52,383 nt of DNA, from the IMG/VR virus record IMGVR_UViG_3300033145_003438, positions 1 to 52,383 of that record. One strand, written 5' to 3'. Positions 8,127-47,921 of this stretch are shown piece by piece. The DNA comes from a virus. Taxonomy: Duplodnaviria; Caudoviricetes. Made by a program: the position numbers and the translations under genes. Below the pieces are notes generated by a model, which was given only the letters and a program-made list of their open reading frames with translations, was not told where the DNA came from and did not search any database. Each line of letters starts with the position of its first letter. Positions within the stretch are counted from its first letter, which is position 1.

Positions 8127-8162
8127 CCGGTTCCAATATAGCCGACCGGTTCCAACATAGCC
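8127..8162 (+). repeat. Tandem 17-bp direct repeat upstream of MCP
   Basis: CCGGTTCCAATATAGCC (8127-8143) and CCGGTTCCAACATAGCC (8146-8162). Confidence 0.75.
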
Positions 8163-8241
8163 AGGTGAGCGGATGAACGGACAGTAAGTGAAATGTACGG
8201 GATTTCTATAACCTAACTATTTGGAAACGGGAGGAATTAAA

Positions 8242-8459
8242 ATGGGACAAACAGTAGTGGGTACCGGTGATGCGAAAGCGATCAAGAAGTTTTCTGCTTT
8301 TCTCGCACTCGATGTACCGAAAAAAGCGTATTGGACTCGGAAGTTCATGGGGTACGGCGAAACGGCCTCCATGCCTATCCAGATGCTGAAGGAACTGGAA
8401 AGTGATGCTGGTGAGCAGGTTACGTTTGACCTGACCATGCAGATGACGATGCAGCCGGT
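8242..8459 (+). CDS. Major capsid protein exon 1 (N4-gp56/DUF4043 family); spliced CDS join(8242..8459,9234..10140), 374 aa
   Basis: GGAGG RBS; MGQTVVGTGDAKAIKK..ELESDAGEQVTFDL..QPV continues in frame into EGDDVLENREEDLKFY after intron removal. Confidence 0.9.
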
Positions 8460-8615
8460 TAACCTTAGCCGCCTTGCCGCGTAAGTGGCATTGCAAAGTG
8501 GGTGAAATGCTGGAAACCCCTAAGAGCCCGAAACACCACAACGCAGCTGGCAACGGCAAACGTGATGGTTTGAAAAGGATCGGGATTGGGCAATCAGCAG
8601 CGAAGGTTCATGAGA

Positions 8616-9032
8616 TTAAAGAGAGTTGAGGATATGGAGTTGTTGTTTAAGAGAATGCCTGAGTTCCAAAATGTTTTTGTCAAGTCCTTGACGGGCTGGT
8701 CTGGAGCCAAAGGTTTTTCTGAATTTTATAGCTACTTCCGCCTGCTCTCTTTTTATAACAAGATATGGCAATACGTCGTAAAGCAACTTAAGAGCTGTTT
8801 TCGGAGATGCACGCCATTCGTGCTTTGGTTTCCAATTTGGTTTATGCGAAGGGCTTTTTCGGTGATATACCTGACCTCCAAATTTATCATACAGCCATTC
8901 AATAAGATCGGCTTTTGTATTGGTTACTCCGAGAATAAGGAAATGGCGGTTTTTCTTTTTGTAAAAAACAATAGAAAAATGTCCCTCTCCATCAAGAATG
9001 CCAGCAAGATACGCAAGGTTGGTTTTATTCAT
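8616..9032 (-). CDS. Single-motif LAGLIDADG homing endonuclease, antisense within the intron
   Basis: LAYLAGILDGEGHF motif, ..VLPYLVIKREQA tail; ATG 9032 preferred, ORF open to 9053. Confidence 0.88.
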   Translation of the reverse strand: MNKTNLAYLAGILDGEGHFSIVFYKKKNRHFLILGVTNTKADLIEWLYDKFGGQVYHRKSPSHKPNWKPKHEWRASPKTALKLLYDVLPYLVIKREQAEVAIKFRKTFGSRPARQGLDKNILELRHSLKQQLHILNSL

Positions 9033-9038
9033 AAGTTG

Positions 9039-9067
9039 TTTATGCACTTTCAAGAGATGTTTGTCAA
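9039..9067 (-). promoter_or_regulatory. Putative sigma70 promoter for the antisense endonuclease
   Basis: TTGACA (9067-9062), 17-nt spacer, CATAAA (9044-9039), then 6 nt to ATG 9032 with no SD. Confidence 0.5.
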
Positions 9068-9233
9068 CAATCTCGTGATCAACGTTCAGAGACTATCTCT
9101 TCGGAGAGTACGGCCAAGCGGCCGGAAGTGCCCACCACCCCAACGGGGTGATGATATAGTCCCAACTGTATGGAAACATGCAGCAGCCAATAGTTTGGCG
9201 GGGTAGGGTTAGCGATCCTACTTGAAGGTGCTG

Positions 9234-10140
9234 TGAGGGCGATGATGTACTCGAAAACCGGGAAGAAGATCTGAAGTTCTACACGGATTCTCTTTATATC
9301 GATCAGCTTCGTGGTGGCGTCAACTCCGGTGGCAAGATGACCCGCAAACGGACCAAGCATAAACTGCGGAAGATTGCCCGTAGGCGTCAGTCCGACTGGT
9401 GGGGCAGGGTGTTTGACGAGCTCTTTTTCATGTACGGCAGTGGAGCAAGGGGCGTCAATCCGAAGTTCTTGTTCCCCACAGGTTACACGGGTTTTGCCGG
9501 AAACTCCTTTTCTGCTCCGGATACCGATCATATCCAGTATGGCGGCGGGAAGGTTAAGGCCACCGTCACGACATCGGAAACGATGAACCTGACCGAGATC
9601 GACAAGTTCCGGACCAAGGCCGTGATGATGGATGAAGTTACTGGAACAGCCGGCACGGACGGGGGTACCAAAAACCCGGCTATTCAGCCGATCATGGTTG
9701 ACGGGGAAGAGCACCATGTTTGTGTTATGAGTCCTTATCAGGCCTATAACGTGCGAGTTTCGACCACTGGCGGCCAGTGGCTTGATCTTCAGAAGTCTCT
9801 GGCGGCTGCCATCGGCACCAAGTCCAAGATCTTCAAGGGCGGTATGGGTATGCACAACAACGTGGTTCTTCATGAGCACAAATCGGTGATTCGATTTTCC
9901 GATTACGGTTCCGGTACGAATTTGCCGGCTGCCAGGGCTCTTTTCCTTGGAGAACAGGCCATGGTTTGTGCCTTCGGTTCTCCTGGCACCGGACTCCGGT
10001 TCGGGTGGCATGAGGAAACCAGGGACAATGGTAACCAGTTGATCATCACATCCAGTACCATCGTGGGGGTCGAGAAGGTTACTTTCAACGGCAAGGACTA
10101 CGGTGTCGGCGCGATCGATACCTACGCGACTCAGGCGTAA
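9234..10140 (+). CDS. Major capsid protein exon 2
   Basis: IDQLRGGV..GKMTRKRT..LRKIAR, GGMGMHNNVVLHEH, RALFLGEQA, WHEETRDNGN and DYGVGAID motifs. Confidence 0.92.
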
Positions 10141-19703: not shown

Positions 19704-22700
19704 ATGCCTCTTTCTACCATAGAACAGTGGAATCAGGATCCAGAGTTTTCCCAACTTCCCTATCAACAAAAACGGCAAGTTATCGATAATTATTTCGACT
19801 CCCGGCTTGCTGATGATGAATACTTTTCCCTTTCCTATGATGACCAGGACAAGATTAAACACAATTTCTATGAAAAGGAAGTCGGTCCTGTTCCCATTGA
19901 GAGAACACCCCTGGTTCCAACGGTCCAAGAAGAAGAAAAGGGATTCTTTGGTCGGATCGGTGAAAAATGGAAGACCGGAGAGGCCCAGACCGAACTTGGC
20001 ATCCTGAGATCCCGTCAGTTAATGGGTGAAGACACGCCGGAGATCCGCGAGAGAATCGCCAAGGTTAAGAAGGATATGCCCCAAGGCGAAGAGGAAAAGC
20101 GGAACCTGTTTGAAAGAGCGATCGGTGCAGCGGCTGAAATGCTTCCCATCCAGGTAGAGGGCATGAAACAGGGCGCAAAACGTGGCATTGCCCTTGGTAC
20201 CGGCTTTGGGACTATTGCGGGTATTGCCGGTCAAGCCGGTCCACAAGTTGCTACACCTGAAGAAATCATCACCGTCCCTGCGGCATTTGCCGGTGGGTTT
20301 GGCGTGGGAATGGTTTCCGGGACCCTTGAGAACATCGGGAAGATTGAAGCCGGTCTTGCCTATGATGAATTGCTGGACCTGAAGGACGAAAACGGGAATA
20401 AAATCGATCCCAAGATTGCCAAGGCCGCGGCCGCTTCTGTAGGTGTTGTCAATGGTCTTATCGAAATGTCACAGATCGGGCTCCTCTTAAAAACCATTCC
20501 AGGCGGGAAGGCAATATTAACAGGTGCGATCAGAAAAACGATTACCGAAGCCGTTAAAAAGGGAACTCTAAAACAGGTAGCTTTAAGGGCCGGTATAAAA
20601 TACGGAGTATTTGTTACGGCTGAAACCGGGCAGGAGGTCTTACAGGAATCTACCAATATCCTGATGGCCGAGGTTGCAAAAAAGGTTGATCGTAATTTGG
20701 GGAATTCGAACATAGCGCCTGCCACCCGCCAGGAAATCATAAGCCGATTGGTGGAAACAGCCGAACAATCCGCATTAGCCTTCATGGCCATGGGTGCGCC
20801 GGGGACTGTAGTAACCACTGGCATGGATGTCCGGGCCGCCAGAAAGGACGCACGAAACGAACTTCTGGATCCTGGTGAAGAAGGCGCGGACGCCAGGGAG
20901 ATTTTAACCGGGGAAAAGCCGGTATCACCCGATATTGAGGCTGTTGATACCCTGGACGCTGAAGAACAAGCAAGGCAGTTCGATGAAGATGAGCTCGACC
21001 GAGTTCAATCCCAAGAGACACAGACTAAAAAACCGAAAATCGAAAAGCCCAAAGCCCCGTGGATTGCGCGATTGACCGATGCGCAACTTACCCAACGTAT
21101 TGAAAATCTTGAAAACAACAAACGAGTTGGCAGGTTAAATGATACCCAGGCCAGTGTTCTTGAACGCCTTCACACCGAAACTGAAAACCGCGGCATCAAG
21201 TCTGCTTCTGACTCTGCAGGCGTTTTCTTTAAAGAAGAGATCGAAGAAGAAAAGAAAGAAAACTCTGCGAAAGCAAAGGAAATATTTGAACAACCAACCG
21301 AGTTGTCCGGTAAATCGGCCCAGGAATCAGCGCAGGCCATTCTTGTAGAAGAGGAAATTTCCAAAAATCAGACCGCAAGGGATGAAGCCAAAAAAGATAA
21401 CAATCTAAAATATATCGCCAAAACTCTGAAAATTGACAATATCGATAACGCCTCCAACGAGGAACTATTACGAGCTAAAATGCAGTTGAAACACCAGGGC
21501 CGTGATGACCTTGTTCGGTCCATCGACAACGAATTCGATTCGCGGCGGTCCGCGAAAACAGAGGAGAGAGAAAAAAAACAGGCTGAATCTGAAAAGCAAT
21601 CACCACCGGAAATAGATATCAAAACTCCAAAAAAGGAAGAGCAAAAATACACGACCCTTGGCGGTGCGATCCGGAACATGGGTGGTATTAAAACCGGTGG
21701 GTTGAAAACGGACATCCTCTATCAGAATGATGCTGCTCAGAAAGGCAAGCTGATCAACGAAAAATCCGGTCTTGAGATCGAGAAAATGCAGAGTCAGCTT
21801 GTCGACGCTGGTTGGATGCTTCCCAGTGAAGACCTTACCCAGATTCTTTCTGAGAATCCGGACAGACTCCGAGAGGGTATGCTTGACGGAGAGGCCAAAA
21901 CCAAATGGCAGAAAGAACGCTCAGCAGAAAAACAAGCCCAGGAAGATGAAATTCCAGAACCAACAAAAGATGAGATGGAAGCCGATCCTTCACTGGCAGC
22001 GGCTTTCCCGGAATTAGCGCAACAATATGGAATAAAGACAAGCCCGGCAGAAAAACCCGAGGATCTTGATATCAGTTTTGATTTTGGGGCGAATACGGAC
22101 TCCGGTACCACATCGGCAGATATGGCGGGGGTGGCCACCACCGATACAAAAGACGATGACGGTGCTCATGAATATTCATCCACCCAGGTAAACATTCCTG
22201 AATCAGAGGCAAAAGAGATCAAGGAGTTTTCATCCCAGATACCGGATTCTGAACTGGCAGATGACGGGCGCGAAGATACTCCGCACATTACCGTAAAATA
22301 CGGGCTCCATACCAATGATTTGCGAAAAGCTCAGCCCCTTATAAAAGGGGTGGGACCGATCAAGGCGAAACTGGGAAAGGTTTCCATCTTTGAAAATGAT
22401 GATGAAGATGTTGTTATGGTGGAGATCGACAGCCCTGAACTGCATGCTCTCAATAAAAAGATTGCCGATGGTCTGGAACATACGGACACACATCCGGATT
22501 ACAAGCCCCATGCCACCATAGCGTATGTAAAAAAAGGTGAAGGGAAGAAGTATGGCGGGGATGATCGATTCGAAGGTAAAGAGATCACCCTGAACTCTTT
22601 GGTGTTTTCCGGAAAGGATGGAAGGGAAACAAAATATAACTTTAAAAAAAAGCCGAAATCTGCTAAGAAACCTACCGTGACCTCCGAAAAGGGGCCGGGC

Positions 22701-25700
22701 AAAACACCCACCACAAAAACCTCTCAAAGCCCGAAGGGTGGGGACAATCTTGAAGTGTTATATCAGCACGATACAAAGCTGTTTATTGACGACGATGGTA
22801 AAGAGTATCGTGCCGATGATGCTTCTGATTCTCTTTCCTTATTATCAGACAAAGAATTTGTTGAGATAACGGGTTATTCAAAAAATGATTTTAGGAGGAT
22901 GGGGGGGGCAATATATTTCATTCCAAAAGATAAGCCAGGCATAAACTCCATTCATCATATCTCTGGTGAGATTATATTAAGTGATGATTTAAAGAATAAT
23001 AAGAGCACTCTACAAAAAACATTAATTCACGAATTAACACATTGGGGGCAAATCCAAAAAAATGAGGCACCAGAAGCCTATTATGTTAATCCAGAAGAAA
23101 GTATCTCTGGTTTTATGGATTATTTTTCTGACCCCGCTGAAGTTAAGGCAAGATTTAATGCGGATGGGCGATCTGATGAAGAATACAACGCATTTATAAA
23201 AGATTTGAATTGGGCCAAAAGTACAGATTCCGGCAAGATTAAAGCTCCAGACATCGGTGAAATTCGAATTGAAACAAGAAAAAAATGGCGCATGCCATTG
23301 TCGTATATTAAACAGGAAATTAAGGCAGCTCAAAGAAAAAACGATTATAGAAATATCGCTCCCCGGAAGCTACAAAACGACATTGATGAAATAGAGGGAA
23401 TTGTCGGACATGAAACAAGCGACGCATTAACAAAGAAGGATGATTTACACGAACAGCTTGAAACGATTTACAACAGAGATCCAATATCCGATAGTGATAT
23501 ATCCAATATTAATGAGTTTTACTTCGAAACAAAACGTAAGTGGAACCTAAGAAGGCTTGGCTCCGCAGATAGAAAACTCCGCAACGATGAAATTGAATAT
23601 TATGAAATACCTGTAATGCGGGTTGAGGTTTTGGGTAAGAAAAATCCTCAAACCGGGAAAAGAGGAAGAATAAATCCAATAATCACTGAAGGTATCCTAA
23701 GGGACAAAACAGGTATCAAGGGAATTGCCGTAGGGCCAAATGAAATTAATATTGATTTAAACGCATCTAATGTAAAAAACATATATAAGCTTAACAAGAA
23801 AACCAAAAAGTTTTTTCTCCCTAACCCCACAATCTCACCGGAAAAGGTGAGCAAAGATGCTACCCCTGCATCAAAACCCACCGTAAAAACCAAAGAATTA
23901 TCCCCCTCTGTTGTTTCGATACAGGGCGCCACACAACCCAAACCATCCAGAAAGAAAAAAGAAGACACCCTAAAATTTGGCGAAACCATCGGAGGCTCTA
24001 AATACGACAAAGCCCAAGAGCGCCTTTCTCTTTCTTCGATCACGGATATGAACGAGCGGGAGAGACATAAAAACATCGTAAAGAGAAATATCTGGCCAAA
24101 GCCTGATTATGTAAAGATGGTTGAAAGTGGTCATTCTCCTGAAAACATGTACTTGATCAAGAAAGTAATCGATTCAATACCGGTTCGACCGGAAAAGGTT
24201 GAAGATCAGGAACTGTTCATACAGGAAGTGGGCAGGATTCGAGATATCGTTGAACAGATCAAACCCGGTAATGATATTCAGGGCCTTTTCGGTAAAATAT
24301 TCACGGAGGAATACCATTCTCGGTCTGGTTATTCAAAAGGCTGGACGGAAAAGGGCGGGCCTGTTGCCCACATGCTTAAACCCAAATTTCTGAAAGCCGT
24401 TCAAATCAGCAATTACGATATGTTGACCGCCAAACGAAAAGTTGAAAAGACCGGTTTCCCGGCAAAACAGGAGGCATGGAAGCAGGGCATTGAGATTGTA
24501 GAGCGTGGTTTTGGCGATAATGCCACATGGTCTATTTTTCGGCGCAAGGGTGGCAGAATGGTCGAAGTCCTTGGCAAGGGCTTTAAAACCAAAGAAGAGG
24601 CCCAGAATCACCTCACAGACGTTCTGCAACCGAAATTGAAAGCATCGATGAAGGGAAAGGGCCGGTTTAAGAAGCCCATGCTTGACCACATCACGCGAAC
24701 AGGGACCGACTATCGGGATGGGAAGGATATTACCACTGACGATATCCTTGAAACATTCGGTTTCCGGGGTGGTGAATTCGGTAAATGGTTGAACGAAAAG
24801 AATCAGCAGGAATCCCTGAATCATGCCTATGACGCTTTCATGGATCTTGCAAACATTCTGGACATCCCTCCCATGGCCATAAGCCTGAATGGTACGCTTG
24901 GTATCGCCTTCGGTGCCAGGGGATCGGGGGGGGCGGCTGCGCATTATGAAGGCGATAAGGTCGTTATCAACCTTACGAAACTATCCGGCGCTGGATCGCT
25001 GGCCCATGAGTGGGGGCATGCTTTTGATGATTATTTCGGAAAAATGGCAAAATCGCCACAATCCGGAAAGTATATGATCACTCCCCTGTCTGCAGGAAAA
25101 ACAGGGAAAGAATCAACCGTCCGGCCGGAAATGCTCAATGCATGGCTGAACGTCAGAGGCCGGATTGCAAAACGTGATGAAACCAAAAAAGAGGCCATTG
25201 CTCGGGTTGAAAAGGAAATAAAGAAAAGCAAGCGATATACCAAGTCCTGGCTGGACGGGATCAGGACCGAGTTAGAAAGAGATGATACCGCATACAGTAA
25301 GAAGAAAAGGGCTGCAACCGAAAGTGAGTTAAAGTCCTGGGATAAATTGACGGAGGAAATCCTTGCCGGAAAGCATAAACCCGTTCTTGATGAAAATGTC
25401 CGGTCAAAATACACCATGCCGGCAGTCAATGACTTTTATAAGGGCGTCAAAGGCGTTCTTCCTGCCTCTGATACGAGAACAAGCCTATCGGCCAACATCA
25501 ACAGCCTTCAGCGCAACGTAGAGCACCTGGCAGAGATTAAATCGGATAAAGCAAAACCACGTCAGATCACAACCAATTTCAAGGGCAAGGCAAAAGAGCT
25601 CGGGAATGTTGAATACTGGGGCAATCCCCATGAACTGTTCGCCCGGGCGCTTGAATCCTATGTTGATGATCAGATAAGAGAACAACCCAACAAAAGCCAG

Positions 25701-28700
25701 TACCTCGTTCACAGCACTCAGAACAGCCTGTACGGTGAAGACATCTCTCCATATCCCATGGGTGTAGAACGTGTTGCCATCAACAAGGCGTTTGACGGGC
25801 TTTTTGATGTTCTTGAATCAAAAGAGACCGATAGGGGCGTTGCTCTCTTTTACAAGCGTCGCAATCCTCAAAAGTATAGTGTTCTCAGCAAGAAAAAACT
25901 TGAAGCTGCTATCACCGGCATATCTGGTGCATGGGAAAACGCCCCTGATATCGTCGTTCTGCAAAAGCAAAACGAGTTGCCAGAAAAAATACAGAAAATG
26001 GCCGATGGTGATATCGTTGACGGTGCACACTATCAGGGAAAGATTTTCTTGGTAGCCGAAAATATGAAGGACACCAACTATGTTGTTGAGGTTCTTCTCC
26101 ATGAGGCATTTGGCCACTACGGTATTCGTGGCGTCCTTGGGAAGAACTTAGCTCCCGTTTTAAGAGACGTTTATATCGCCAAACGAAAAGAGGTTCAAGA
26201 GATAGCCCAGGAATACGGCTTTGATCTCAGTGAAGAATCCGGAAGAGCACTGGCCGCCGACGAGTGGCTTGCCAGGGAAGCCCAGAAGAACCCCGAATCA
26301 AAATGGATTGACCGCGTTATCTCAGCGATCCGCGCCTTCGTCCGGAAATTCTACCCCAAGTTCAAGATGACCGACAAGGATATCCGGAAGATACTGGCCG
26401 ATGCAAAATCTTATGTGACTAAAGGAAAGCGAAAATCACATAAAAGCCGCATACCTTCATTCTCCAAAGACAAAAAGGCCGATAAGTGGCACTCCCAGAT
26501 GGCCAACTTCCTGAACATGAAGCTGACCAACGGACCCGCAAAACAGATCAAGTCTAATCTTCAGGCGTGGGCGAAGAAAGGTTTGATCAAACAAGAAGAA
26601 TTGGAATGGTCCGGATTGCTTGACTGGTTGGATTCCAAGAGCAAGGTCAACACATGGAATGCCGTTGCGGACAAAGATCGTTTTACCATCGAATTAAGGG
26701 AAGATGGCCGGTATTACCTTTATGATACCGATCTTGGACCTGATAATACGGCGGCAATGCCGGATTATGAAAAGTTTGAAGACGCCATTGCAAGCGCGGA
26801 GGATGTTGTTGATACCCGTAGGAACAAGACAATAAAACTTAATTTCAAGCCCAATAAACCAGGGAAGGTCAAAAAGATCGATACCCTGAATTACCTGAAA
26901 GATAACAATGTCACGTTGCAGGAGGTTCTGAAAGACAGTGAACTGTGGGTGGTGTGGGATGGTGAAGAAGAAACGTATTTTGAAACACACCAAGAGGCGC
27001 TTGATTACGGGCAAGAAATAGGCGCACCGCCAGAAGACATTTTTTATAAAGAAAGTAAGATGTCTGATGCGACCAAGTTTTCCCAATACACACTTCCCGG
27101 TGGAAAAAATTACAAAGAACTGCTTTTGACATTGCCGGCGAATTCCAAACCACAAACAAATGCGCTTAATGATTTTATTCGTCGGATGGAAAATAAGTAT
27201 GTTGGTACAGAACGACATTGGCGAGTTGCCATGAACGATCAAGAAGCAGATGAGTTTGAATCATTGGCAGAAGCCGAACGTTTAGGTTTTTCGACAGACA
27301 GCCAAGAATATAAGTCCTCCCACTGGCAAGAACCCAACGTATTAGCACACGTCCGATTCAACGAACGTACCGATGCAGACGGAAACAAGGTGTTGTTTAT
27401 TGAGGAGATACAGAGCGATTGGGCGTCCGAAGGTCGGAAGAAGGGGTTCCGTGGAAAGTTTAGGGGCCAAGGTTTTACTAAAAGCAAGGCTGTTTCTGAT
27501 GCTTTAAAACGTTCAAATATGGTTCCAAACGCTCCGTTTGTCGGGAGCACACAGAAATATGTGATGCTTGCGGTAAAGCGAATGGTAAGGCACGCCGCTG
27601 AAAACGGTTTCGACAAGATAGCCTGGACAACGGGACAGATACAATCAGATCGATACGATCTAAGCAAACAACTTGAGTCTATCACATATGCTCCCGATTC
27701 GAAGAAGGGGTTTCCGGGAATACTTCGAGCATATCCATTATCTCCAAATGAAGCGCCTATCATAAAACGAATTTCCGATGAAAATGAACTGGCTGTTGTT
27801 ATCGGAAAGGGTCTGGCAGAAAAAATCATTGATGGCGATAGAGATATCAGAGGTAAGGATCTCAAGGTAGACAGCCCCGGTATGCGCGGATTTTATGACA
27901 AGATTATCCCTGCTGCGGTTAATAAATTTTTCAACAAGGCCGCTTGGGGCAAGGCGAAGGTTGAGACAATAAAAATACAGACTGAAATAGGATCTGAGGG
28001 GTTTGAGATTCCCCAACGGGTTGAAGATGTCTGGTCTCTCCCACTCACCCCAAAAATGAAACAGAAAGCCCTCCGTGAGGGCATGCCCCTTTTTAAAAAG
28101 CGGGACCGCACCACCAAAAAGAGCGATACAGGATCCGGCATCCTTCCAGCGGAAGTCGAACAGCGCATGGAAGCATCCAGAGGCGTTCCGAAAACGACCC
28201 TGAAAGAAAAGGTCAAAGAGCAGATCGTAGAGATCCGCAGGCAGAGGCAGCATTTCCCCAAACTAAAGACTATCGAGGATAAAAACCTACGCCACCGTCT
28301 TGCCGATATCCTCCGGAGACATCAGGAAGTACCTGAATCGGTCAAGCAGCAGACAATAAAATTCTTGAGCTCATTTACCCAGGATCTATCCAAGCAGGAC
28401 TATGAAGCCTTTCGGATGCACATCATTCTGGCCGATATGAAACGGGATATCGACAAAGGCCTTTTGGATGAAAAATCAAAGCTGCCGTTCGGTTTTTCAT
28501 CCATAGACGATGTTGAAAAAGCCTTTAAGGGTTATCAGGAACTGGCAAACAACAATCCGAAGATCAAAAAAGCCCTGAAAAAAAGAAATGATAAGGTCAA
28601 TGAGATCAAGCAGAAACTGGTTGATGCCAAACTTCTGAAAAAAGAAGTGATGGAGGATGAAGACTATTTCCATCATCAAGTATTGATGTTCTGGGATGAT

Positions 28701-31217
28701 AAATACGGTCTTGCTACAGGTTCGAGCGATGTTAGAACCCACTGGCGCGGATGGATGGCAGCAAGGAAGGGATCTGCCCTTGATTACAACACCGAGTACA
28801 TTGAAGCCGAATTTATGGCCATATCTCAGCAGATGGCCCAGTTGGAGGCCGTTGCCACCCTGAAACGGATCAAGGACGAAGCGGATGTTTATTCTCAGAT
28901 AAAGTCCCATGCCAAGGCCGCGAACTTCAATAATTTTTACAAGAAACTTAAAGATGCTTTCGGGCATGATGTTAAAGACACCGACGATGATCCTTTAAAG
29001 CCATTCAGGGCCAAGATCGCCATGTCCAACATGAAGCTGGCAGAGATGGCCGCGAATGGGAAATTACATTACGATAGCGAATGGCAAGAGATTGTAGATG
29101 CTTTGAACAATTCTTATTCGTTCTGGAAAGAGAATAAAGACGACATCCCCGATATACCAACTCCGGGTGTAGATGATCCGCGTTGGTTTCACTTTTTGTC
29201 TCATCTACTCAATACACAAGCACCGGGGGCAAACTGGGCCGCTACCATATTCAAAAGTATCAAAGGCCGAGATACGACCATTCAGAGCACCCTTGGCGGT
29301 GATTTCCTGACCTACCGCAATTTAATCCCCAAGGGATACAAACAGTGGAAACCAGACCCCGGCAAAGGATGGTTCTGGGCCAATACGGTTGCCGATAACG
29401 CCCTTCAAAGAATGATCGACGGTGAACTGAACCCGAAAGATGTTGAATTCCGGAAGATCATCGCAAAGGGCAGGGATCTAATATGGATCATCCCCGAGGG
29501 GCTTGCCGACACTCTGGATAAATTCATTGATTATGGGGATCCTTCACATATCGGGAAAGTGGCGGATAAAGCTCTTTCTATGTGGAAACAGTGGATCCTG
29601 TTAAATCCCTTCTCCGTGGTTCGATACAACCTTAATAATATGTCTGGTGACCTCGATGCGGTTCTGGCCTATGCACCCGGAATAGCCGGGAAGAAATACG
29701 CACATCAGGCCATGAAGGACCTCTGGAAGTGGCACAGAAGAAAGAATCTGCCGGCCAACGTGCAGAAAGAAATTGATGAAGCCCGGAAACTGGGAGTGAT
29801 CGGATCCGGCTTTTCCGTACAGGAAGTGGACGATGCCCTGAAAATTCTTTCCATGGATAAGATCGTTCGGGATGTCATTCTCGACGAAAAGCCCAACTGG
29901 TTTAACCCGAAGACCTACGGAGAAAAATACTGGAAATATGTTCAAATGTTTACGGCCCTGAGAGAGAACGTCCTCCGGTTGGCAGCCTACAGGTGGTTCC
30001 TCGAAAATAACAATAAACAGCTTTATGGTGCATCCAAACCGGAAGAGATCGATGCAATAACAGATCCCCACGAAAAGGCCGCGAAACTGGCCCGAGAACT
30101 CTTGGGGGATTACGGCAACCTTTCAAAGACCGGCGAGTGGGTCCGGAAGAGACTCATACCTTTCTATTCCTGGCTTGAAATCAATACCCCCCGATATGTC
30201 TATCTGATGCGAAACTCGAAATATGAGAACAGAAAAGCGGCATCTGCTACCGGTAAAATGGCAATGGTGGGTGGTAAAAAGGTTATCATGTCCTCTGCAA
30301 GTTTGGCTTTAAGGGCATCGATGCTCTATGGCGCCGTAATGCTTTGGAACATGACCATGTTTCCAGACGAAGAAAGGGAATTGGGCGAAACCGGCAGAAA
30401 TCAGCTTCACATCATTTTGGGAAGACGGGAGGACGGCTCAATCATTTCCATACGATTTCAAGGCGCTCTTTCGGATGCGCTTTCATGGTTCGGCATGGAA
30501 GATTGGCCTTATGATGTCAAAGACCTGATTGAAGGCAAAAAGACTATTCTTGATAAGTTGAAAGAAGCCGGCAAGGGCGTGTTTAATCGTACAATTCATG
30601 GACTCAGGCCAGAAATTAAAATGTTTGCCGAGCAGATCAGCGGGAAGAGTTACTATCCAGATGCTACCAGAGGGCTTCCGATCCGTGATCGCCTCGAACA
30701 CGCCATGAAGACTTTCAAGCTGGACCAGCTTACCGGATATAGGGCGGTGATCGGACGTCCGGGACGGGGAAAGAATCCCGATGCTCCAAGAGCGGTACAG
30801 GTCATGCAACACCTTGTCAACGATCTGCAGAGAATACTTGTCTATTATGCGGATCCCGGGATGCTGGCCTATTATGACACACGCGGGATGGTTTTCGATT
30901 GGTTGGCCAAAGAGGGTGACGAAAAGCGGTACGGTGGCAGACCCACGAGCAAGGCCAATTCATTTTATTGGTATAAACAAGCCATGAAATTTGGGGACCT
31001 TGAAGCAGCCCATCGATATTTAACAAAATACTACGAAAAGGGTGGAACGGAAAGATCAAAAATTACTTCAATCCGAAACGCACACCCCTTATCCAGTATT
31101 CCGAAGATGAGAAGAAAGGCCTTCCGGGATTCCCTGAAGCCGGACCAGGATGAAGTCTTAAAAAGAGCCCTTAAATGGTACAAAAAAACATATTTAGAAA
31201 AGGAAGGTGAGAAATGA
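19704..31217 (+). CDS. Giant polyvalent internal virion protein (2H phosphoesterase, zincin HExxH domains, LPD5/LPD1-like, EEIQSDW domain)
   Basis: HITV/HATI 2H motifs; HELTH, HEWGH and HEAFGH; FGETIGG and FGFRGGEFG..AFGARG; SHW..AHVRF..FIEEIQSDW. Confidence 0.85.
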   Translation: MPLSTIEQWNQDPEFSQLPYQQKRQVIDNYFDSRLADDEYFSLSYDDQDKIKHNFYEKEVGPVPIERTPLVPTVQEEEKGFFGRIGEKWKTGEAQTELGILRSRQLMGEDTPEIRERIAKVKKDMPQGEEEKRNLFERAIGAAAEMLPIQVEGMKQGAKRGIALGTGFGTIAGIAGQAGPQVATPEEIITVPAAFAGGFGVGMVSGTLENIGKIEAGLAYDELLDLKDENGNKIDPKIAKAAAASVGVVNGLIEMSQIGLLLKTIPGGKAILTGAIRKTITEAVKKGTLKQVALRAGIKYGVFVTAETGQEVLQESTNILMAEVAKKVDRNLGNSNIAPATRQEIISRLVETAEQSALAFMAMGAPGTVVTTGMDVRAARKDARNELLDPGEEGADAREILTGEKPVSPDIEAVDTLDAEEQARQFDEDELDRVQSQETQTKKPKIEKPKAPWIARLTDAQLTQRIENLENNKRVGRLNDTQASVLERLHTETENRGIKSASDSAGVFFKEEIEEEKKENSAKAKEIFEQPTELSGKSAQESAQAILVEEEISKNQTARDEAKKDNNLKYIAKTLKIDNIDNASNEELLRAKMQLKHQGRDDLVRSIDNEFDSRRSAKTEEREKKQAESEKQSPPEIDIKTPKKEEQKYTTLGGAIRNMGGIKTGGLKTDILYQNDAAQKGKLINEKSGLEIEKMQSQLVDAGWMLPSEDLTQILSENPDRLREGMLDGEAKTKWQKERSAEKQAQEDEIPEPTKDEMEADPSLAAAFPELAQQYGIKTSPAEKPEDLDISFDFGANTDSGTTSADMAGVATTDTKDDDGAHEYSSTQVNIPESEAKEIKEFSSQIPDSELADDGREDTPHITVKYGLHTNDLRKAQPLIKGVGPIKAKLGKVSIFENDDEDVVMVEIDSPELHALNKKIADGLEHTDTHPDYKPHATIAYVKKGEGKKYGGDDRFEGKEITLNSLVFSGKDGRETKYNFKKKPKSAKKPTVTSEKGPGKTPTTKTSQSPKGGDNLEVLYQHDTKLFIDDDGKEYRADDASDSLSLLSDKEFVEITGYSKNDFRRMGGAIYFIPKDKPGINSIHHISGEIILSDDLKNNKSTLQKTLIHELTHWGQIQKNEAPEAYYVNPEESISGFMDYFSDPAEVKARFNADGRSDEEYNAFIKDLNWAKSTDSGKIKAPDIGEIRIETRKKWRMPLSYIKQEIKAAQRKNDYRNIAPRKLQNDIDEIEGIVGHETSDALTKKDDLHEQLETIYNRDPISDSDISNINEFYFETKRKWNLRRLGSADRKLRNDEIEYYEIPVMRVEVLGKKNPQTGKRGRINPIITEGILRDKTGIKGIAVGPNEINIDLNASNVKNIYKLNKKTKKFFLPNPTISPEKVSKDATPASKPTVKTKELSPSVVSIQGATQPKPSRKKKEDTLKFGETIGGSKYDKAQERLSLSSITDMNERERHKNIVKRNIWPKPDYVKMVESGHSPENMYLIKKVIDSIPVRPEKVEDQELFIQEVGRIRDIVEQIKPGNDIQGLFGKIFTEEYHSRSGYSKGWTEKGGPVAHMLKPKFLKAVQISNYDMLTAKRKVEKTGFPAKQEAWKQGIEIVERGFGDNATWSIFRRKGGRMVEVLGKGFKTKEEAQNHLTDVLQPKLKASMKGKGRFKKPMLDHITRTGTDYRDGKDITTDDILETFGFRGGEFGKWLNEKNQQESLNHAYDAFMDLANILDIPPMAISLNGTLGIAFGARGSGGAAAHYEGDKVVINLTKLSGAGSLAHEWGHAFDDYFGKMAKSPQSGKYMITPLSAGKTGKESTVRPEMLNAWLNVRGRIAKRDETKKEAIARVEKEIKKSKRYTKSWLDGIRTELERDDTAYSKKKRAATESELKSWDKLTEEILAGKHKPVLDENVRSKYTMPAVNDFYKGVKGVLPASDTRTSLSANINSLQRNVEHLAEIKSDKAKPRQITTNFKGKAKELGNVEYWGNPHELFARALESYVDDQIREQPNKSQYLVHSTQNSLYGEDISPYPMGVERVAINKAFDGLFDVLESKETDRGVALFYKRRNPQKYSVLSKKKLEAAITGISGAWENAPDIVVLQKQNELPEKIQKMADGDIVDGAHYQGKIFLVAENMKDTNYVVEVLLHEAFGHYGIRGVLGKNLAPVLRDVYIAKRKEVQEIAQEYGFDLSEESGRALAADEWLAREAQKNPESKWIDRVISAIRAFVRKFYPKFKMTDKDIRKILADAKSYVTKGKRKSHKSRIPSFSKDKKADKWHSQMANFLNMKLTNGPAKQIKSNLQAWAKKGLIKQEELEWSGLLDWLDSKSKVNTWNAVADKDRFTIELREDGRYYLYDTDLGPDNTAAMPDYEKFEDAIASAEDVVDTRRNKTIKLNFKPNKPGKVKKIDTLNYLKDNNVTLQEVLKDSELWVVWDGEEETYFETHQEALDYGQEIGAPPEDIFYKESKMSDATKFSQYTLPGGKNYKELLLTLPANSKPQTNALNDFIRRMENKYVGTERHWRVAMNDQEADEFESLAEAERLGFSTDSQEYKSSHWQEPNVLAHVRFNERTDADGNKVLFIEEIQSDWASEGRKKGFRGKFRGQGFTKSKAVSDALKRSNMVPNAPFVGSTQKYVMLAVKRMVRHAAENGFDKIAWTTGQIQSDRYDLSKQLESITYAPDSKKGFPGILRAYPLSPNEAPIIKRISDENELAVVIGKGLAEKIIDGDRDIRGKDLKVDSPGMRGFYDKIIPAAVNKFFNKAAWGKAKVETIKIQTEIGSEGFEIPQRVEDVWSLPLTPKMKQKALREGMPLFKKRDRTTKKSDTGSGILPAEVEQRMEASRGVPKTTLKEKVKEQIVEIRRQRQHFPKLKTIEDKNLRHRLADILRRHQEVPESVKQQTIKFLSSFTQDLSKQDYEAFRMHIILADMKRDIDKGLLDEKSKLPFGFSSIDDVEKAFKGYQELANNNPKIKKALKKRNDKVNEIKQKLVDAKLLKKEVMEDEDYFHHQVLMFWDDKYGLATGSSDVRTHWRGWMAARKGSALDYNTEYIEAEFMAISQQMAQLEAVATLKRIKDEADVYSQIKSHAKAANFNNFYKKLKDAFGHDVKDTDDDPLKPFRAKIAMSNMKLAEMAANGKLHYDSEWQEIVDALNNSYSFWKENKDDIPDIPTPGVDDPRWFHFLSHLLNTQAPGANWAATIFKSIKGRDTTIQSTLGGDFLTYRNLIPKGYKQWKPDPGKGWFWANTVADNALQRMIDGELNPKDVEFRKIIAKGRDLIWIIPEGLADTLDKFIDYGDPSHIGKVADKALSMWKQWILLNPFSVVRYNLNNMSGDLDAVLAYAPGIAGKKYAHQAMKDLWKWHRRKNLPANVQKEIDEARKLGVIGSGFSVQEVDDALKILSMDKIVRDVILDEKPNWFNPKTYGEKYWKYVQMFTALRENVLRLAAYRWFLENNNKQLYGASKPEEIDAITDPHEKAAKLARELLGDYGNLSKTGEWVRKRLIPFYSWLEINTPRYVYLMRNSKYENRKAASATGKMAMVGGKKVIMSSASLALRASMLYGAVMLWNMTMFPDEERELGETGRNQLHIILGRREDGSIISIRFQGALSDALSWFGMEDWPYDVKDLIEGKKTILDKLKEAGKGVFNRTIHGLRPEIKMFAEQISGKSYYPDATRGLPIRDRLEHAMKTFKLDQLTGYRAVIGRPGRGKNPDAPRAVQVMQHLVNDLQRILVYYADPGMLAYYDTRGMVFDWLAKEGDEKRYGGRPTSKANSFYWYKQAMKFGDLEAAHRYLTKYYEKGGTERSKITSIRNAHPLSSIPKMRRKAFRDSLKPDQDEVLKRALKWYKKTYLEKEGEK

Positions 31218-45263: not shown

Positions 45264-47921
45264 CTATGCCTCAATATTAGCGCGTTGAGGCTCGCGCGAC
45301 TGAATATCCATTTCTTTGATAAATCGTGATATCGGGTTATGATAAATCTTGCCCGATTTGCTTTCCTTGGTTTCCGGTCGGGCTGTGAGGATCAAGTGAT
45401 CTTCGGCCCTGGTGACCGCTACGTAGCAAAGGCGGCGTTCATCCTCTATATTATCAGAGGATATCGCCTGTTTTGAGGGGAGAAGGCCCTCGTTCATGCC
45501 GGCTATGATGACAATCGGGAACTCAAGGCCTTTCGCGCCATGGATCGTCATCAGTTGGATCCCTTCAGTTTCTTCGGTGATTTCATCCTGCAGGTCATAG
45601 GTGGCCAACCAGTCAAGATATAGAATGATTGGGCCTACTTCGCTCGGAATGTCTTTCATTTTCGGGTGATCATTTTCCCATTTCAGAATAAAATCACAGA
45701 TATCCTTGGTGTTAAATAGCACGCCTAAAGATTCCCCCATAATGCGAACCAGTCCACCAAGGTCGTGTGACCGGGAGGCAATTTCAATATCACGCCACCA
45801 CGACTCTCTGTAGTTATCTTTCCATGCCTGAAAATGGCTTTTTCCTTCCATAATTGACCGAAATCGAACCTTGCTATATTCCCCATCGCTTAAATTAATG
45901 AAGTCCTTAATCAACAGAAATGCAAAGTTGTCATAGGGATTGACGATCAATTTCAAAACAGCGTGGAATCGTCTGAACTCTTCTGACCTGGTGAGCTCAG
46001 TTTTGCGGCCCACATAGGTATGCGGAACATTTTCTTCCTTTAGTATGGAAGAAAGTTTCTTTAATAGGATGTGGTTTCTCGACAAGATCGCCATGTCCTT
46101 TAGGTCAAAGGCTTCCAGTTCAACAATTCCCTTCAGGTATCCGGCCAGGAAGTTACTATCGAAGTTTCGTTTTACGGTGACCACATCCTTGTTGGAATTC
46201 CTGGTGGCAATCATGGTCTTTTCAAGGCGTGATGAATTGTTGACGATCAGTTGATTTGCTGAATAAACAATGTCCAAGTCAGACCGGTAATTTAGTTCAA
46301 GACGATAAATGTCGAATTCGTCTTGGTGTTCCAGAAGATATTCCGGTACGGCACCGCGAAAGGAATAGATGCTATTGCAAGTACAAAGGCCGTCGGCAAC
46401 GTAGGTGTGATATTTTTCAACATCTAAGCTATAAACAGACAATTTTTCTACATTCTCAAACGATATGTCTTTTATCGGGGACCATTTTATAAAACGGGTG
46501 CCTTCTTTTTGCGGAAGACAAAAGAATCCTGCCCTCAAATTATGGGTAGATATCTGAAAAATTGTTTTCCCCCCCTGCTTTTTATGGTCGCCGTTATTAT
46601 TAAAAAATGGGTGTGCCATACTAAGTTTATGATCGGAAAGAATTTTCTTTGCGTTTGTTTCCAGGTGCCACAAAGAATTAAAAACATAATCGATTCCTTC
46701 TTGGTCATAGTATTTGGCATTATTGGTGGCTTTAAATGTGATGGTGGGTATTCCATACTGCGCAGCCAAGATGCTTTCCAATAGAGATGCTTGTTTTTTT
46801 GTATCGCAAAATCTTAATATCCAAGCACAATCTGCGCCTTCAAGGCGAACGCGAGTATAAAAATGAATGCCCGGGTGTCCGTTCCTGAATAGTTGGCACC
46901 ATCCTATTCTAAATCGATTTCCTTTTTTCATTAAATAGACAACATTCCACTTGTGGTCCCTTGCCCAATCTGACCATTTCACATACCATTTATGATTATC
47001 GGTACACGATGTTGCCTTACCTCCTTTAACCCTGATCGTCCTAAGAATTCCTGTAAATTTTCTTTTTTTGATTGAAAATTTATATCCTTTGTTATGGCCG
47101 CCATAAATCATGGCGTCATGTTTGCAATATACCTTCAATTCGTCCTTTTCAGGATCAAGTGATTCAATTGGCTTCGCTCCATTGGTAGTAATAACCATCG
47201 TCCCTTCAGGTTGGCATTGATCGATGTCACCCACCACAAAGAGGGATGCACCGAACGCCTCAACCATTTTGTTGATGATTCTCCACTGAAGGGGATCGAT
47301 GTCCTGAACTTCGTCGACAAGGATATGTTTGTAATGAAGATGCTTTGCCATGGTATCGATGAGCATTTCCAGGCCGATCAGGAGGCCGCCGTAGGTCAAT
47401 GAGTTGTTTTCGCGGCAACGAGCCATAAAAGCTTTGAACAGAGGATAGGTTTTATCCAACTCATTCGGAACAATTCCTTTTTGATAATAATTATTTAAAG
47501 TAAGATCGATGTCCGCCTTCTTGGGATTCCAACCCTTTTTAAAGACTCCCATTTCTTTGGCGATTTCTTTTAGGAGAAAGGCCTCTTCCCATGCCCCATA
47601 TACTGTAATAGAGTTCGGCCGCATGCCGATGATCTCCCCGAACCGATGGAGCATGCTCAATGCCAGTGAGTGCATGGTTCCCATGGTGACGTTATGGGCG
47701 GTCGACCCCAGGCGGTCTTCAAGACGGGTTTTCATCTCCTGGGCGGCTTTTCTGGTGAAGGTGAACGAAAGAATTTCATAGGGCGAAACTTTTTCATCTT
47801 CAACCAGGTGCGCTATTCGTTCGGTCAGAACTCGAGTCTTTCCTGATCCGGCCCCGGCCAAAACGAGCACACTTTTTCCTTTGGCGAATACGGCTTTTTC
47901 TTGGTTTTTGTCTAATTGCAT
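45264..47921 (-). CDS. uvrD: UvrD/PcrA SF1 helicase containing an intein
   Basis: AGAGSGKT, TFTRKAA, VDEVQD, VGDIDQ-[intein]-SIYSFRGA, TIHGAKGLEF, ERRLCYVAVTRA. Confidence 0.92.
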   Translation of the reverse strand: MQLDKNQEKAVFAKGKSVLVLAGAGSGKTRVLTERIAHLVEDEKVSPYEILSFTFTRKAAQEMKTRLEDRLGSTAHNVTMGTMHSLALSMLHRFGEIIGMRPNSITVYGAWEEAFLLKEIAKEMGVFKKGWNPKKADIDLTLNNYYQKGIVPNELDKTYPLFKAFMARCRENNSLTYGGLLIGLEMLIDTMAKHLHYKHILVDEVQDIDPLQWRIINKMVEAFGASLFVVGDIDQCQPEGTMVITTNGAKPIESLDPEKDELKVYCKHDAMIYGGHNKGYKFSIKKRKFTGILRTIRVKGGKATSCTDNHKWYVKWSDWARDHKWNVVYLMKKGNRFRIGWCQLFRNGHPGIHFYTRVRLEGADCAWILRFCDTKKQASLLESILAAQYGIPTITFKATNNAKYYDQEGIDYVFNSLWHLETNAKKILSDHKLSMAHPFFNNNGDHKKQGGKTIFQISTHNLRAGFFCLPQKEGTRFIKWSPIKDISFENVEKLSVYSLDVEKYHTYVADGLCTCNSIYSFRGAVPEYLLEHQDEFDIYRLELNYRSDLDIVYSANQLIVNNSSRLEKTMIATRNSNKDVVTVKRNFDSNFLAGYLKGIVELEAFDLKDMAILSRNHILLKKLSSILKEENVPHTYVGRKTELTRSEEFRRFHAVLKLIVNPYDNFAFLLIKDFINLSDGEYSKVRFRSIMEGKSHFQAWKDNYRESWWRDIEIASRSHDLGGLVRIMGESLGVLFNTKDICDFILKWENDHPKMKDIPSEVGPIILYLDWLATYDLQDEITEETEGIQLMTIHGAKGLEFPIVIIAGMNEGLLPSKQAISSDNIEDERRLCYVAVTRAEDHLILTARPETKESKSGKIYHNPISRFIKEMDIQSREPQRANIEA
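46374..47216 (-). mobile_element. Intein (281 aa) in UvrD motif III
   Basis: Begins CQPEGTMV; block B CTDNHKW; ends VYSLDVEKYHTYVADGLCTCN followed by Ser+1; removal restores GDIDQSIYSFRGA. Confidence 0.92.

Follow-up and report, generated by a model that had tools for sequence, protein, structure and literature searches.

We conclude with high confidence that a mobile group I intron, of the IA type known from phages, interrupts codon 73 of the major capsid gene in an uncultured tailed phage (Caudoviricetes). The phage is represented by IMG/VR record IMGVR_UViG_3300033145_003438, whose whole stretch of 52,383 nucleotides (nt) was analysed and is called the window below. The coordinates of the exons, of the intron with its helices and of the endonuclease gene that lies antisense within it are collected in Table 1.

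In the list of open reading frames (ORFs) of the window, the capsid gene appears as two pieces, 8221-8484 and 9337-10140, which match the same protein profiles in colinear order. In the Pfam family PF13252, residues 6-70 of the first piece align with profile positions 2-63 and residues 2-299 of the second with positions 68-375 of 376; in phrog_334 ('major head protein'), the two pieces cover positions 1-69 and 72-380 of 381. Together, the two exons give a full-length, colinear match to either family. Joining 8242-8459 to 9234-10140 by script yields a frame of 1125 nt, or 374 codons with a single terminal stop, and neither exon contains a frameshift or a stop. The product reads TMQPV/EGDDVLE across the junction, with codon V73 split as GT/T (slashes mark the junction); at the RNA level the joined exons read CCGGU-UGAGGGC, and the predicted spliced junction is CCGGTTGAGGGC. 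The joined protein is 51-53% identical to the uninterrupted capsid proteins of Erwinia phage Pavtok, Pseudomonas phage Itty13 and Ralstonia phage Gervaise, and the alignment with these three is free of gaps for more than 25 residues on both sides of the junction. Exon 1 is alignable with all three proteins, and exon 2 is about 50% identical to the capsid proteins of cultured phages.

We then compared 83 related capsid loci, namely those of the three cultured phages and the 80 best IMG/VR matches. The matches to exon 1 and exon 2 lie exactly one codon apart in 77 of them; two others (L017 and L081) have long insertions, and the remaining four (L007, L049, L050 and L083) begin too late to cover exon 1. 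The identity of the gene and its exact colinearity are thus matters of observation. An initial annotation made from the sequence alone had described two broken capsid pieces and a 1125-nt frame reading QPV/EGDDVLE after removal of 8460-9233; both were reproduced, and homologous capsids are colinear across PV/EG. From the DNA run X1, we obtained a contig of 251 nt over 8129-8379, together with a 36-nt piece that belongs to another intron; nothing lay across the capsid intron, and there were no joints.

The inserted RNA was identified in several ways. With E-value reporting, the general Rfam group I model RF00028 matched 8889-9183 at 39.4 bits (E-value 2.5e-8 in a 1.1-kb search and 1.2e-6 in the whole window), with a second match at 8508-8610 (19.5 bits). 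When the whole window was searched against Rfam at E-values up to 0.01, this one group I intron was the sole match and no second intron was found. By blastn, 8495-8640 and 9075-9226 are similar to short stretches in 98 phage records, whose genes include nrdE of phage Twort, the split RNA polymerase genes of two phages, a split primase/helicase gene and a tail gene annotated as possibly holding an intron. We aligned the 3' halves of eight related introns, including that of the window, and RNAalifold predicted P7, P7.1, P7.2, part of P8, P9, P9.1 and P9.2 from the alignment, with a compensatory change in at least one sequence for 21 of the 34 consensus pairs. From six introns, it also recovered P4, P5 and the GNRA-capped hairpin. 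A covariance model (R1) was then built from seven other introns, the window being excluded to avoid circularity. R1 matched 9081-9229 over its full length at 134.1 bits (E-value 2.3e-40), with no non-standard pair flagged, and neither strand of the 52 kb gave any other match. P3, which connects the core halves across the long loop, covaries as well: it is GUGGG/CCCAC in the window, CGACG/CGUCG in L017, CGGCG/CGCCG in L081 and CUCUUUC/GGAAGAG in Twort.

All helices of the proposed structure (P1, P10, P2, P3, P4, P6/P6a/P6b and P7 to P9.2, including P7.1 and P7.2) pair in the window when checked base by base by script. The hallmarks of group I introns are present, in that exon 1 ends with a U paired to a G of the guide, the intron ends with a G and its removal restores the frame; the conserved catalytic core, with the P3-P8 and P4-P6 domains and P7, is present too. 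In L017, whose intron occupies the same site, the C at position -4 is replaced by U and the P1 pair is kept as a wobble. The frame of exon 1 runs eight codons into the intron and ends in RLAA followed by a stop, and the same read-through end (LAA and a stop) is found in L017 and L081. An in-frame stop after the upstream exon is common in group I introns (PMC3984707). The presence of P7.1 and P7.2 between P7 and the 3' strand of P3 places the intron in subgroup IA; helices of this type are used in group I classification (PMC3984707). Altogether, the ribozyme core is intact and covarying. As for the related phage introns, we take them to belong to subgroup IA2.

Table 1. Coordinates of the split capsid gene, its intron and the features inside the intron (positions in the window).
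Feature	Position	Strand	Details
Capsid gene, exon 1	8242-8459	+	72 codons and the first two bases of codon V73; PF13252 E 6.5e-5, phrog_334 E 9.6e-11
Capsid gene, exon 2	9234-10140	+	third base of V73, 301 codons and stop; PF13252 E 1.9e-42, phrog_334 E 4e-76
Group I intron, IA type	8460-9233	+	774 nt; starts after U8459, ends with G9233; RF00028, model R1, helices, blastn
P1	8456-8471	+	exon CGGU 8456-8459 with guide GCCG 8468-8471; U8459-G8468 wobble at the splice site
P10	8463-8467 with 9234-9238	+	CCUUA (P1 loop) with UGAGG (exon 2); pairing checked
P2 hairpin	8476-8489	+	GCCGC-GUAA-GUGGC; loop holds UAA 8482-8484, the end of the exon-1 frame
5' core half	8498-8599	+	P3 5' strand 8498-8504, P4 8508-8513/8594-8599, P5, GNRA-capped hairpin 8546-8557
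P6, P6a, P6b 5' strands	8600-8617	+	pair with 9069-9085; stem closes the 451-nt loop
3' core half	9069-9233	+	P6 3' strands, P7 9091-9096/9156-9161, P7.1 9097-9108, P7.2 9112-9123
3' core half, continued		+	P3 3' strand 9129-9135, P8 9136-9150, P9 9166-9183, P9.1 9186-9199, P9.2 9201-9223, terminal G 9233
LAGLIDADG endonuclease gene, intact, single-motif (predicted)	8616-9053	-	145 codons from TTG 9053 (138 from ATG 9032); antisense to the intron
Candidate endonuclease promoter	9039-9067	-	TTGACA 9067-9062, 17 nt, CATAAA 9044-9039, ATG 9032 six bases on; by eye
Open frame, 206 codons	8586-9206	+	codon-aligned with the antisense endonuclease gene

The antisense gene fills 438 of the 451 nt of the terminal loop closed by P6b (8609-8617/9069-9077). 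It accounts for most of the length of the intron and marks the element as mobile. Its product carries the motif LAGILDGEG, whose residues D21, G22, E23 and G24 do not vary among 22 sequences of the family (that of the window and 21 homologues), and it matches phrog_5046 with an E-value of 2.6e-27. The match to the Pfam family LAGLIDADG_1 (PF00961) is weak (E-value 0.0012) and, at 20.1 bits, lies under the cut-off of 23.1; chains of I-MsoI and I-CreI were matched at E-values from 1.2e-5 to 0.06. The AlphaFold model has a mean confidence (predicted local distance difference test, pLDDT) of 92.1 and the order alpha-beta-beta-alpha-beta-beta-alpha (H-E-E-H-E-E-H), and the best Foldseek matches are I-CreI over the whole length, with a template modelling (TM) score of 0.75 and an E-value of 3.7e-8. 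From its sequence and its predicted fold, the product is an intact single-motif LAGLIDADG enzyme of the I-CreI kind.

I-CreI and I-MsoI (PDB 1bp7, 2i3p and 1m5x) are homodimeric, single-motif enzymes from algal rRNA introns. They share with the window protein the fold over its whole length (TM 0.72-0.76, E-values of about 4e-8), the single LAGLIDADG motif and the acidic residue at the catalytic position (E23 in the window). By analogy with I-CreI, the window enzyme should act as a homodimer. It differs from the two in sequence (21-26% identity), in lying antisense within a protein-coding gene of a phage and in having a target without obvious palindrome. The endonucleases of phage introns are mostly of the GIY-YIG, HNH, PD-(D/E)xK or EDxHD families (PMC3984707), so that a LAGLIDADG passenger is less usual. 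The gene is also the only one recognised on the minus strand within the plus-strand structural block, which occupies roughly the first 35.9 kb of the window. The label 'HNH endonuclease' is given to the LAGLIDADG family phrog_5046 by PHROGs and by many GenBank records of actinophages and Caulobacter phages, in which genes of this type often adjoin DNA methyltransferase genes.

The initial annotation had also placed the splice sites at the U8459-G8468 wobble in P1 and at the terminal G9233, and had read P3/P4/P7 with P7.1/P7.2 as a core that fits IA2. Both placements hold base by base, and the core, which is of the IA type, pairs throughout and is matched by R1. The search with group I covariance models that it proposed came out clearly positive for R1, while RF00028 matched under its gathering score. 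The structural reading therefore stands as far as the IA type, though incomplete, as the antisense LAGLIDADG gene had been missed.

Group I introns occur at three sites in this one capsid family, with three endonuclease arrangements. At codon 73, the intron of the window holds the backward LAGLIDADG gene, while that of L017, at the same site and in the same phase (QLV/EGDAVLE), holds a forward HNH-type gene whose AUG lies in the P5'/P4' strand. In L081, an intron with a forward HNH-type gene follows codon 91. In L071, codon 8 is interrupted by an ORF-less intron of some 290 nt that R1 alone detected, and a GIY-YIG-like ORF (1298-1915 within L071:1298-2262; motif read by eye) stands just before the capsid start. 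This last layout presumably resembles 'collaborative homing', which pairs a free-standing endonuclease with an intron that has no ORF. Three sites with three endonuclease arrangements form the pattern of a mobile element and are unlike a conserved regulator.

Scanning IMG/VR with the alignment of the endonuclease family retrieved at least 448 relatives; 80 loci among them were retained. At E-values up to 0.1, R1 gave 61 matches in 47 of these loci. In 25 loci, the core lies on the strand opposite to the endonuclease gene and ends upstream of that gene, at 22-127 nt from its start (the window has 28 nt); this layout is called backward here. Eight loci have the forward layout, with the core on the same strand and starting between 12 nt inside and 44 nt past the end of the endonuclease match; R1 matches stand elsewhere in 14 loci, and 33 have none. 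R1 was built from another intron lineage, and its scores in these loci are accordingly low (13-33 bits). The Rfam model, at E-values up to 0.01, supports three of the 12 layouts re-checked with it (L091 and L114 backward, L149 forward), and it also matches elsewhere in L154 and L091. The flanks of the backward loci match the major head protein family phrog_1357 in 17 of the 21 tested, with no match in L116, L118, L122 and L157; four further backward loci that look like duplicates (L099, L119, L124 and L133) were left out of this test. Among the eight forward loci, a major head protein flanks the element in seven (six phrog_1357 and one phrog_267), and L150 has none. The element in the window thus belongs to a widespread kind that is common in uncultured phages. 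Two or three matches to the group I core on the same strand were seen in the phrog_1357-type capsid genes of L091, L095, L116, L122, L161 and others, which therefore hold multiple introns per capsid gene, and L154, L150 and L134 have two LAGLIDADG genes each.

Several observations weigh against the conclusion that a splicing, mobile intron divides the gene. P1 has only four pairs. P10, which the initial annotation had proposed between CCUUA and UGAGG, does pair in the window but lacks comparative support, as no equivalent pairing was seen by eye in L017, the sole related intron at the same site. At curated gathering thresholds Rfam gave no match in the window, both RF00028 matches falling short of the gathering score of 50; this is likely because the 451-nt P6 loop splits the model, and the gathering score is the curators' cut-off for one general model and no defining biological feature. 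At the insertion site, palindromic symmetry does not rise above background (at most five of 11 pairs, which is common across the gene), and a homodimeric enzyme might prefer a palindromic target. A sigma-70 promoter scan of the minus strand upstream of the endonuclease gene returned no site that passed its criteria; the boxes at 9039-9067 went unlisted because the second hexamer is without its final T. Lastly, the completeness of the record is only about 74% and its class is that of a provirus, so the genome need not be viable.

The state of the record would also suit a decayed insertion that no longer splices, leaving the capsid gene either dead, as in a defective provirus, or expressed as two polypeptides that assemble. 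There is a precedent for the latter in the split nrdA of Aeromonas phage Aeh1, where a non-splicing endonuclease insertion separates two associating peptides (PMC7344957). We consider this very unlikely here. The core helices are all intact, fit a model made from other introns and contain no non-standard pair, both exons are undamaged, and so is the endonuclease gene. Exon 2, moreover, has no start codon near its beginning, its first ATG being at 9337, 34 codons in. A split-gene reading was likewise considered and rejected.

Just as little credence can be given to a regulatory role, in which the intron would gate or time capsid production, for instance because its splicing varies with conditions or because the endonuclease gene is transcribed in antisense. 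The initial annotation had proposed such gating of virion assembly. An antisense gene would indeed yield RNA complementary to the capsid pre-mRNA, and environmental cues affect the efficiency of group I splicing according to earlier studies cited in PMC10914365. However, the 77 related loci with adjoining exon matches have nothing at this site (one of them, L071, has the codon-8 intron), so the intron is dispensable for this type of phage, and the variety of sites and endonucleases within the capsid family speaks for a mobile element. The sequence itself gives no sign of gating or timing, and the data are explained by a selfish mobile intron that splices efficiently and occupies a conserved DNA stretch. 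An assembly artefact, an intein or a group II intron can be practically dismissed, no point in favour of any of them having been found: the boundaries are exact to the base with the frame restored, the insertion is matched by group I models, with no other Rfam family at E-values up to 0.01, and an intein is rejected because the frame of exon 1 stops after eight intron codons.

By analogy with the group I mechanism, the capsid intron would splice as follows. Late transcription would read through the whole capsid gene, and ribosomes entering the intron would halt at the UAA in the P2 loop. The ribozyme would fold and free guanosine would attack after U8459; exon 1 would then attack after G9233, and the joined exons would encode the 374-amino-acid (aa) capsid protein. 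Lying on the opposite strand, the endonuclease gene needs its own promoter, from which the enzyme would be made. The candidate at 9039-9067 could perhaps give a leaderless start at ATG 9032, and several relatives have clearer promoter-like boxes at the same place. As a homodimer, the endonuclease would cleave, at the conserved insertion site, those capsid genes of co-infecting relatives that lack the intron, which would then be copied into the cut allele during repair (homing). We infer the splicing, the promoter, the dimerisation and the cleavage specificity of the enzyme. The insertion site itself is conserved in the 77 intron-less alleles, with the consensus GATGCAGCCGGT upstream and CGAAGGCGATGA downstream of the insertion point; of the 24 central bases, 15-23 are the same as in the window in 73 alleles, and 12 or 13 in the other four. 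Such a conserved stretch of DNA is typical of a homing site.

The capsid-sense strand of the loop region is free of stops over 206 codons (8586-9206). This frame starts at a UUG preceded by AAGGA (by eye), and the AUG of the HNH-type gene of L017 is at the equivalent place. It has no match to any PHROG family, and we regard it as no gene but as non-coding sequence or, at most, a spacer that is translated. The frame is open only if the endonuclease gene avoids the codons TTA, CTA and TCA. None of these occurs among the 21 leucine and seven serine codons of the window's endonuclease gene, despite its AT-rich composition (38.6% G+C); given the window's own codon usage, the chance of this is about 0.003. 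The three codons are wholly absent from 17 of the 25 backward copies, where they make up 32 of 530 leucine and serine codons (6%), and from none of the eight forward copies, where they make up 47 of 177 (27%). Fisher's exact test of backward versus forward avoidance gives P 0.0009, or 0.002 without four likely duplicates, values that are not true probabilities because the loci are related. The avoidance signal in the backward copies is nevertheless real. One possible, though unlikely, explanation is that the backward orientation is an adaptation to very highly expressed late genes, combining an endonuclease with its own promoter and selection for a stop-free sense frame. Expression of the endonuclease would then be uncoupled from the flood of late capsid transcripts; one possible reason for the open frame is that ribosomes translating it on the pre-mRNA might guard the long, unstructured loop against decay or Rho-dependent termination.

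The initial annotation had treated a capsid-gene intron as exceptional, a view that is out of date given the precedents in phages LittleE and Tuc2009 and in crAss-like phages and the three sites in the same capsid family. The major capsid gene of LittleE has an 819-bp intron with an HNH gene transcribed leftwards, and its splicing was demonstrated both by reverse transcription PCR (RT-PCR) and by N-terminal sequencing of the protein (Pope et al. 2013, PMC3706429). Its authors call the LittleE intron 'most likely a group I' and refer to a capsid-gene intron in the lactococcal phage Tuc2009. As far as the published description allows the two to be likened, LittleE and the window share a capsid intron of about 0.8 kb, a homing endonuclease gene in the opposite direction, an exon 1 ending with U and an intron ending with G; they differ in the endonuclease (HNH versus LAGLIDADG), the capsid family and the host group. 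Group I introns are also typical of the major capsid protein (MCP) genes of some crAss-like phages (Yutin et al. 2021, PMC7886860). By their description, these resemble the window in being metagenomic phages with capsid genes split by group I introns, but they belong to another phage order and have another capsid family.

The nrdE intron of Staphylococcus phage Twort is a homologous ribozyme. By blastn it is 76% identical to the window intron over the 5' core, its 3' core aligns helix for helix with compensatory changes, and its endonuclease gene also begins just after the 5' core. In the Twort record (AF485080.1), the nrdE coding sequence is annotated as a three-piece join with the I-TwoI gene inside. 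The two introns differ in the host gene, which in Twort encodes ribonucleotide reductase, and in the endonuclease, which is of the HNH type and on the same strand as the intron. For backward LAGLIDADG genes in phage capsid introns, we found no description in the part of the listed literature that was consulted; the paper on a group I intron database (PMC11835236) makes no mention of phage, capsid or antisense.

A further case concerns Vibrio phage 1.232.O (L087:296-2329, MG592596.1). Its 289-aa 'major capsid protein' covers positions 36-260 of 356 in the phrog_1357 profile, and after the gene come a group I core that is not annotated, a gene for an HNH nuclease and a 'hypothetical protein' of 72 aa without a family match. 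This capsid gene is probably split near its 3' end by an intron. Despite the related intron core, tblastn found no similarity between its capsid protein and that of the window. Elsewhere in the window, the structural block contains a giant ORF of 3837 aa (19704-31217), with an LPD1 'large polyvalent protein' domain at residues 1968-2040 and a 2H-phosphoesterase or Acb1-like domain, of the kind that counters the cyclic oligonucleotide-based antiphage signalling system (anti-CBASS), at residues 834-944. On the minus strand, 45264-47921 encodes an 884-aa UvrD-type helicase matched at residues 2-235 and 778-846; the roughly 540 residues between them, which have no listed match, may represent an insertion or an intein.

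With the window, PF13252/phrog_334 becomes the second capsid family in a widespread lineage of capsid introns that carry I-CreI-like endonuclease genes, mostly backward, and whose other members lie for the most part in phrog_1357. With a backward LAGLIDADG gene in the window and a forward HNH-type gene in L017, the codon-73 site shows in compact form how endonucleases turn over in nature while the homing site stays fixed. If the intron goes unrecognised, the capsid genes of this phage and of many uncultured relatives are called as fragments, and the endonuclease family is often mislabelled 'HNH'.

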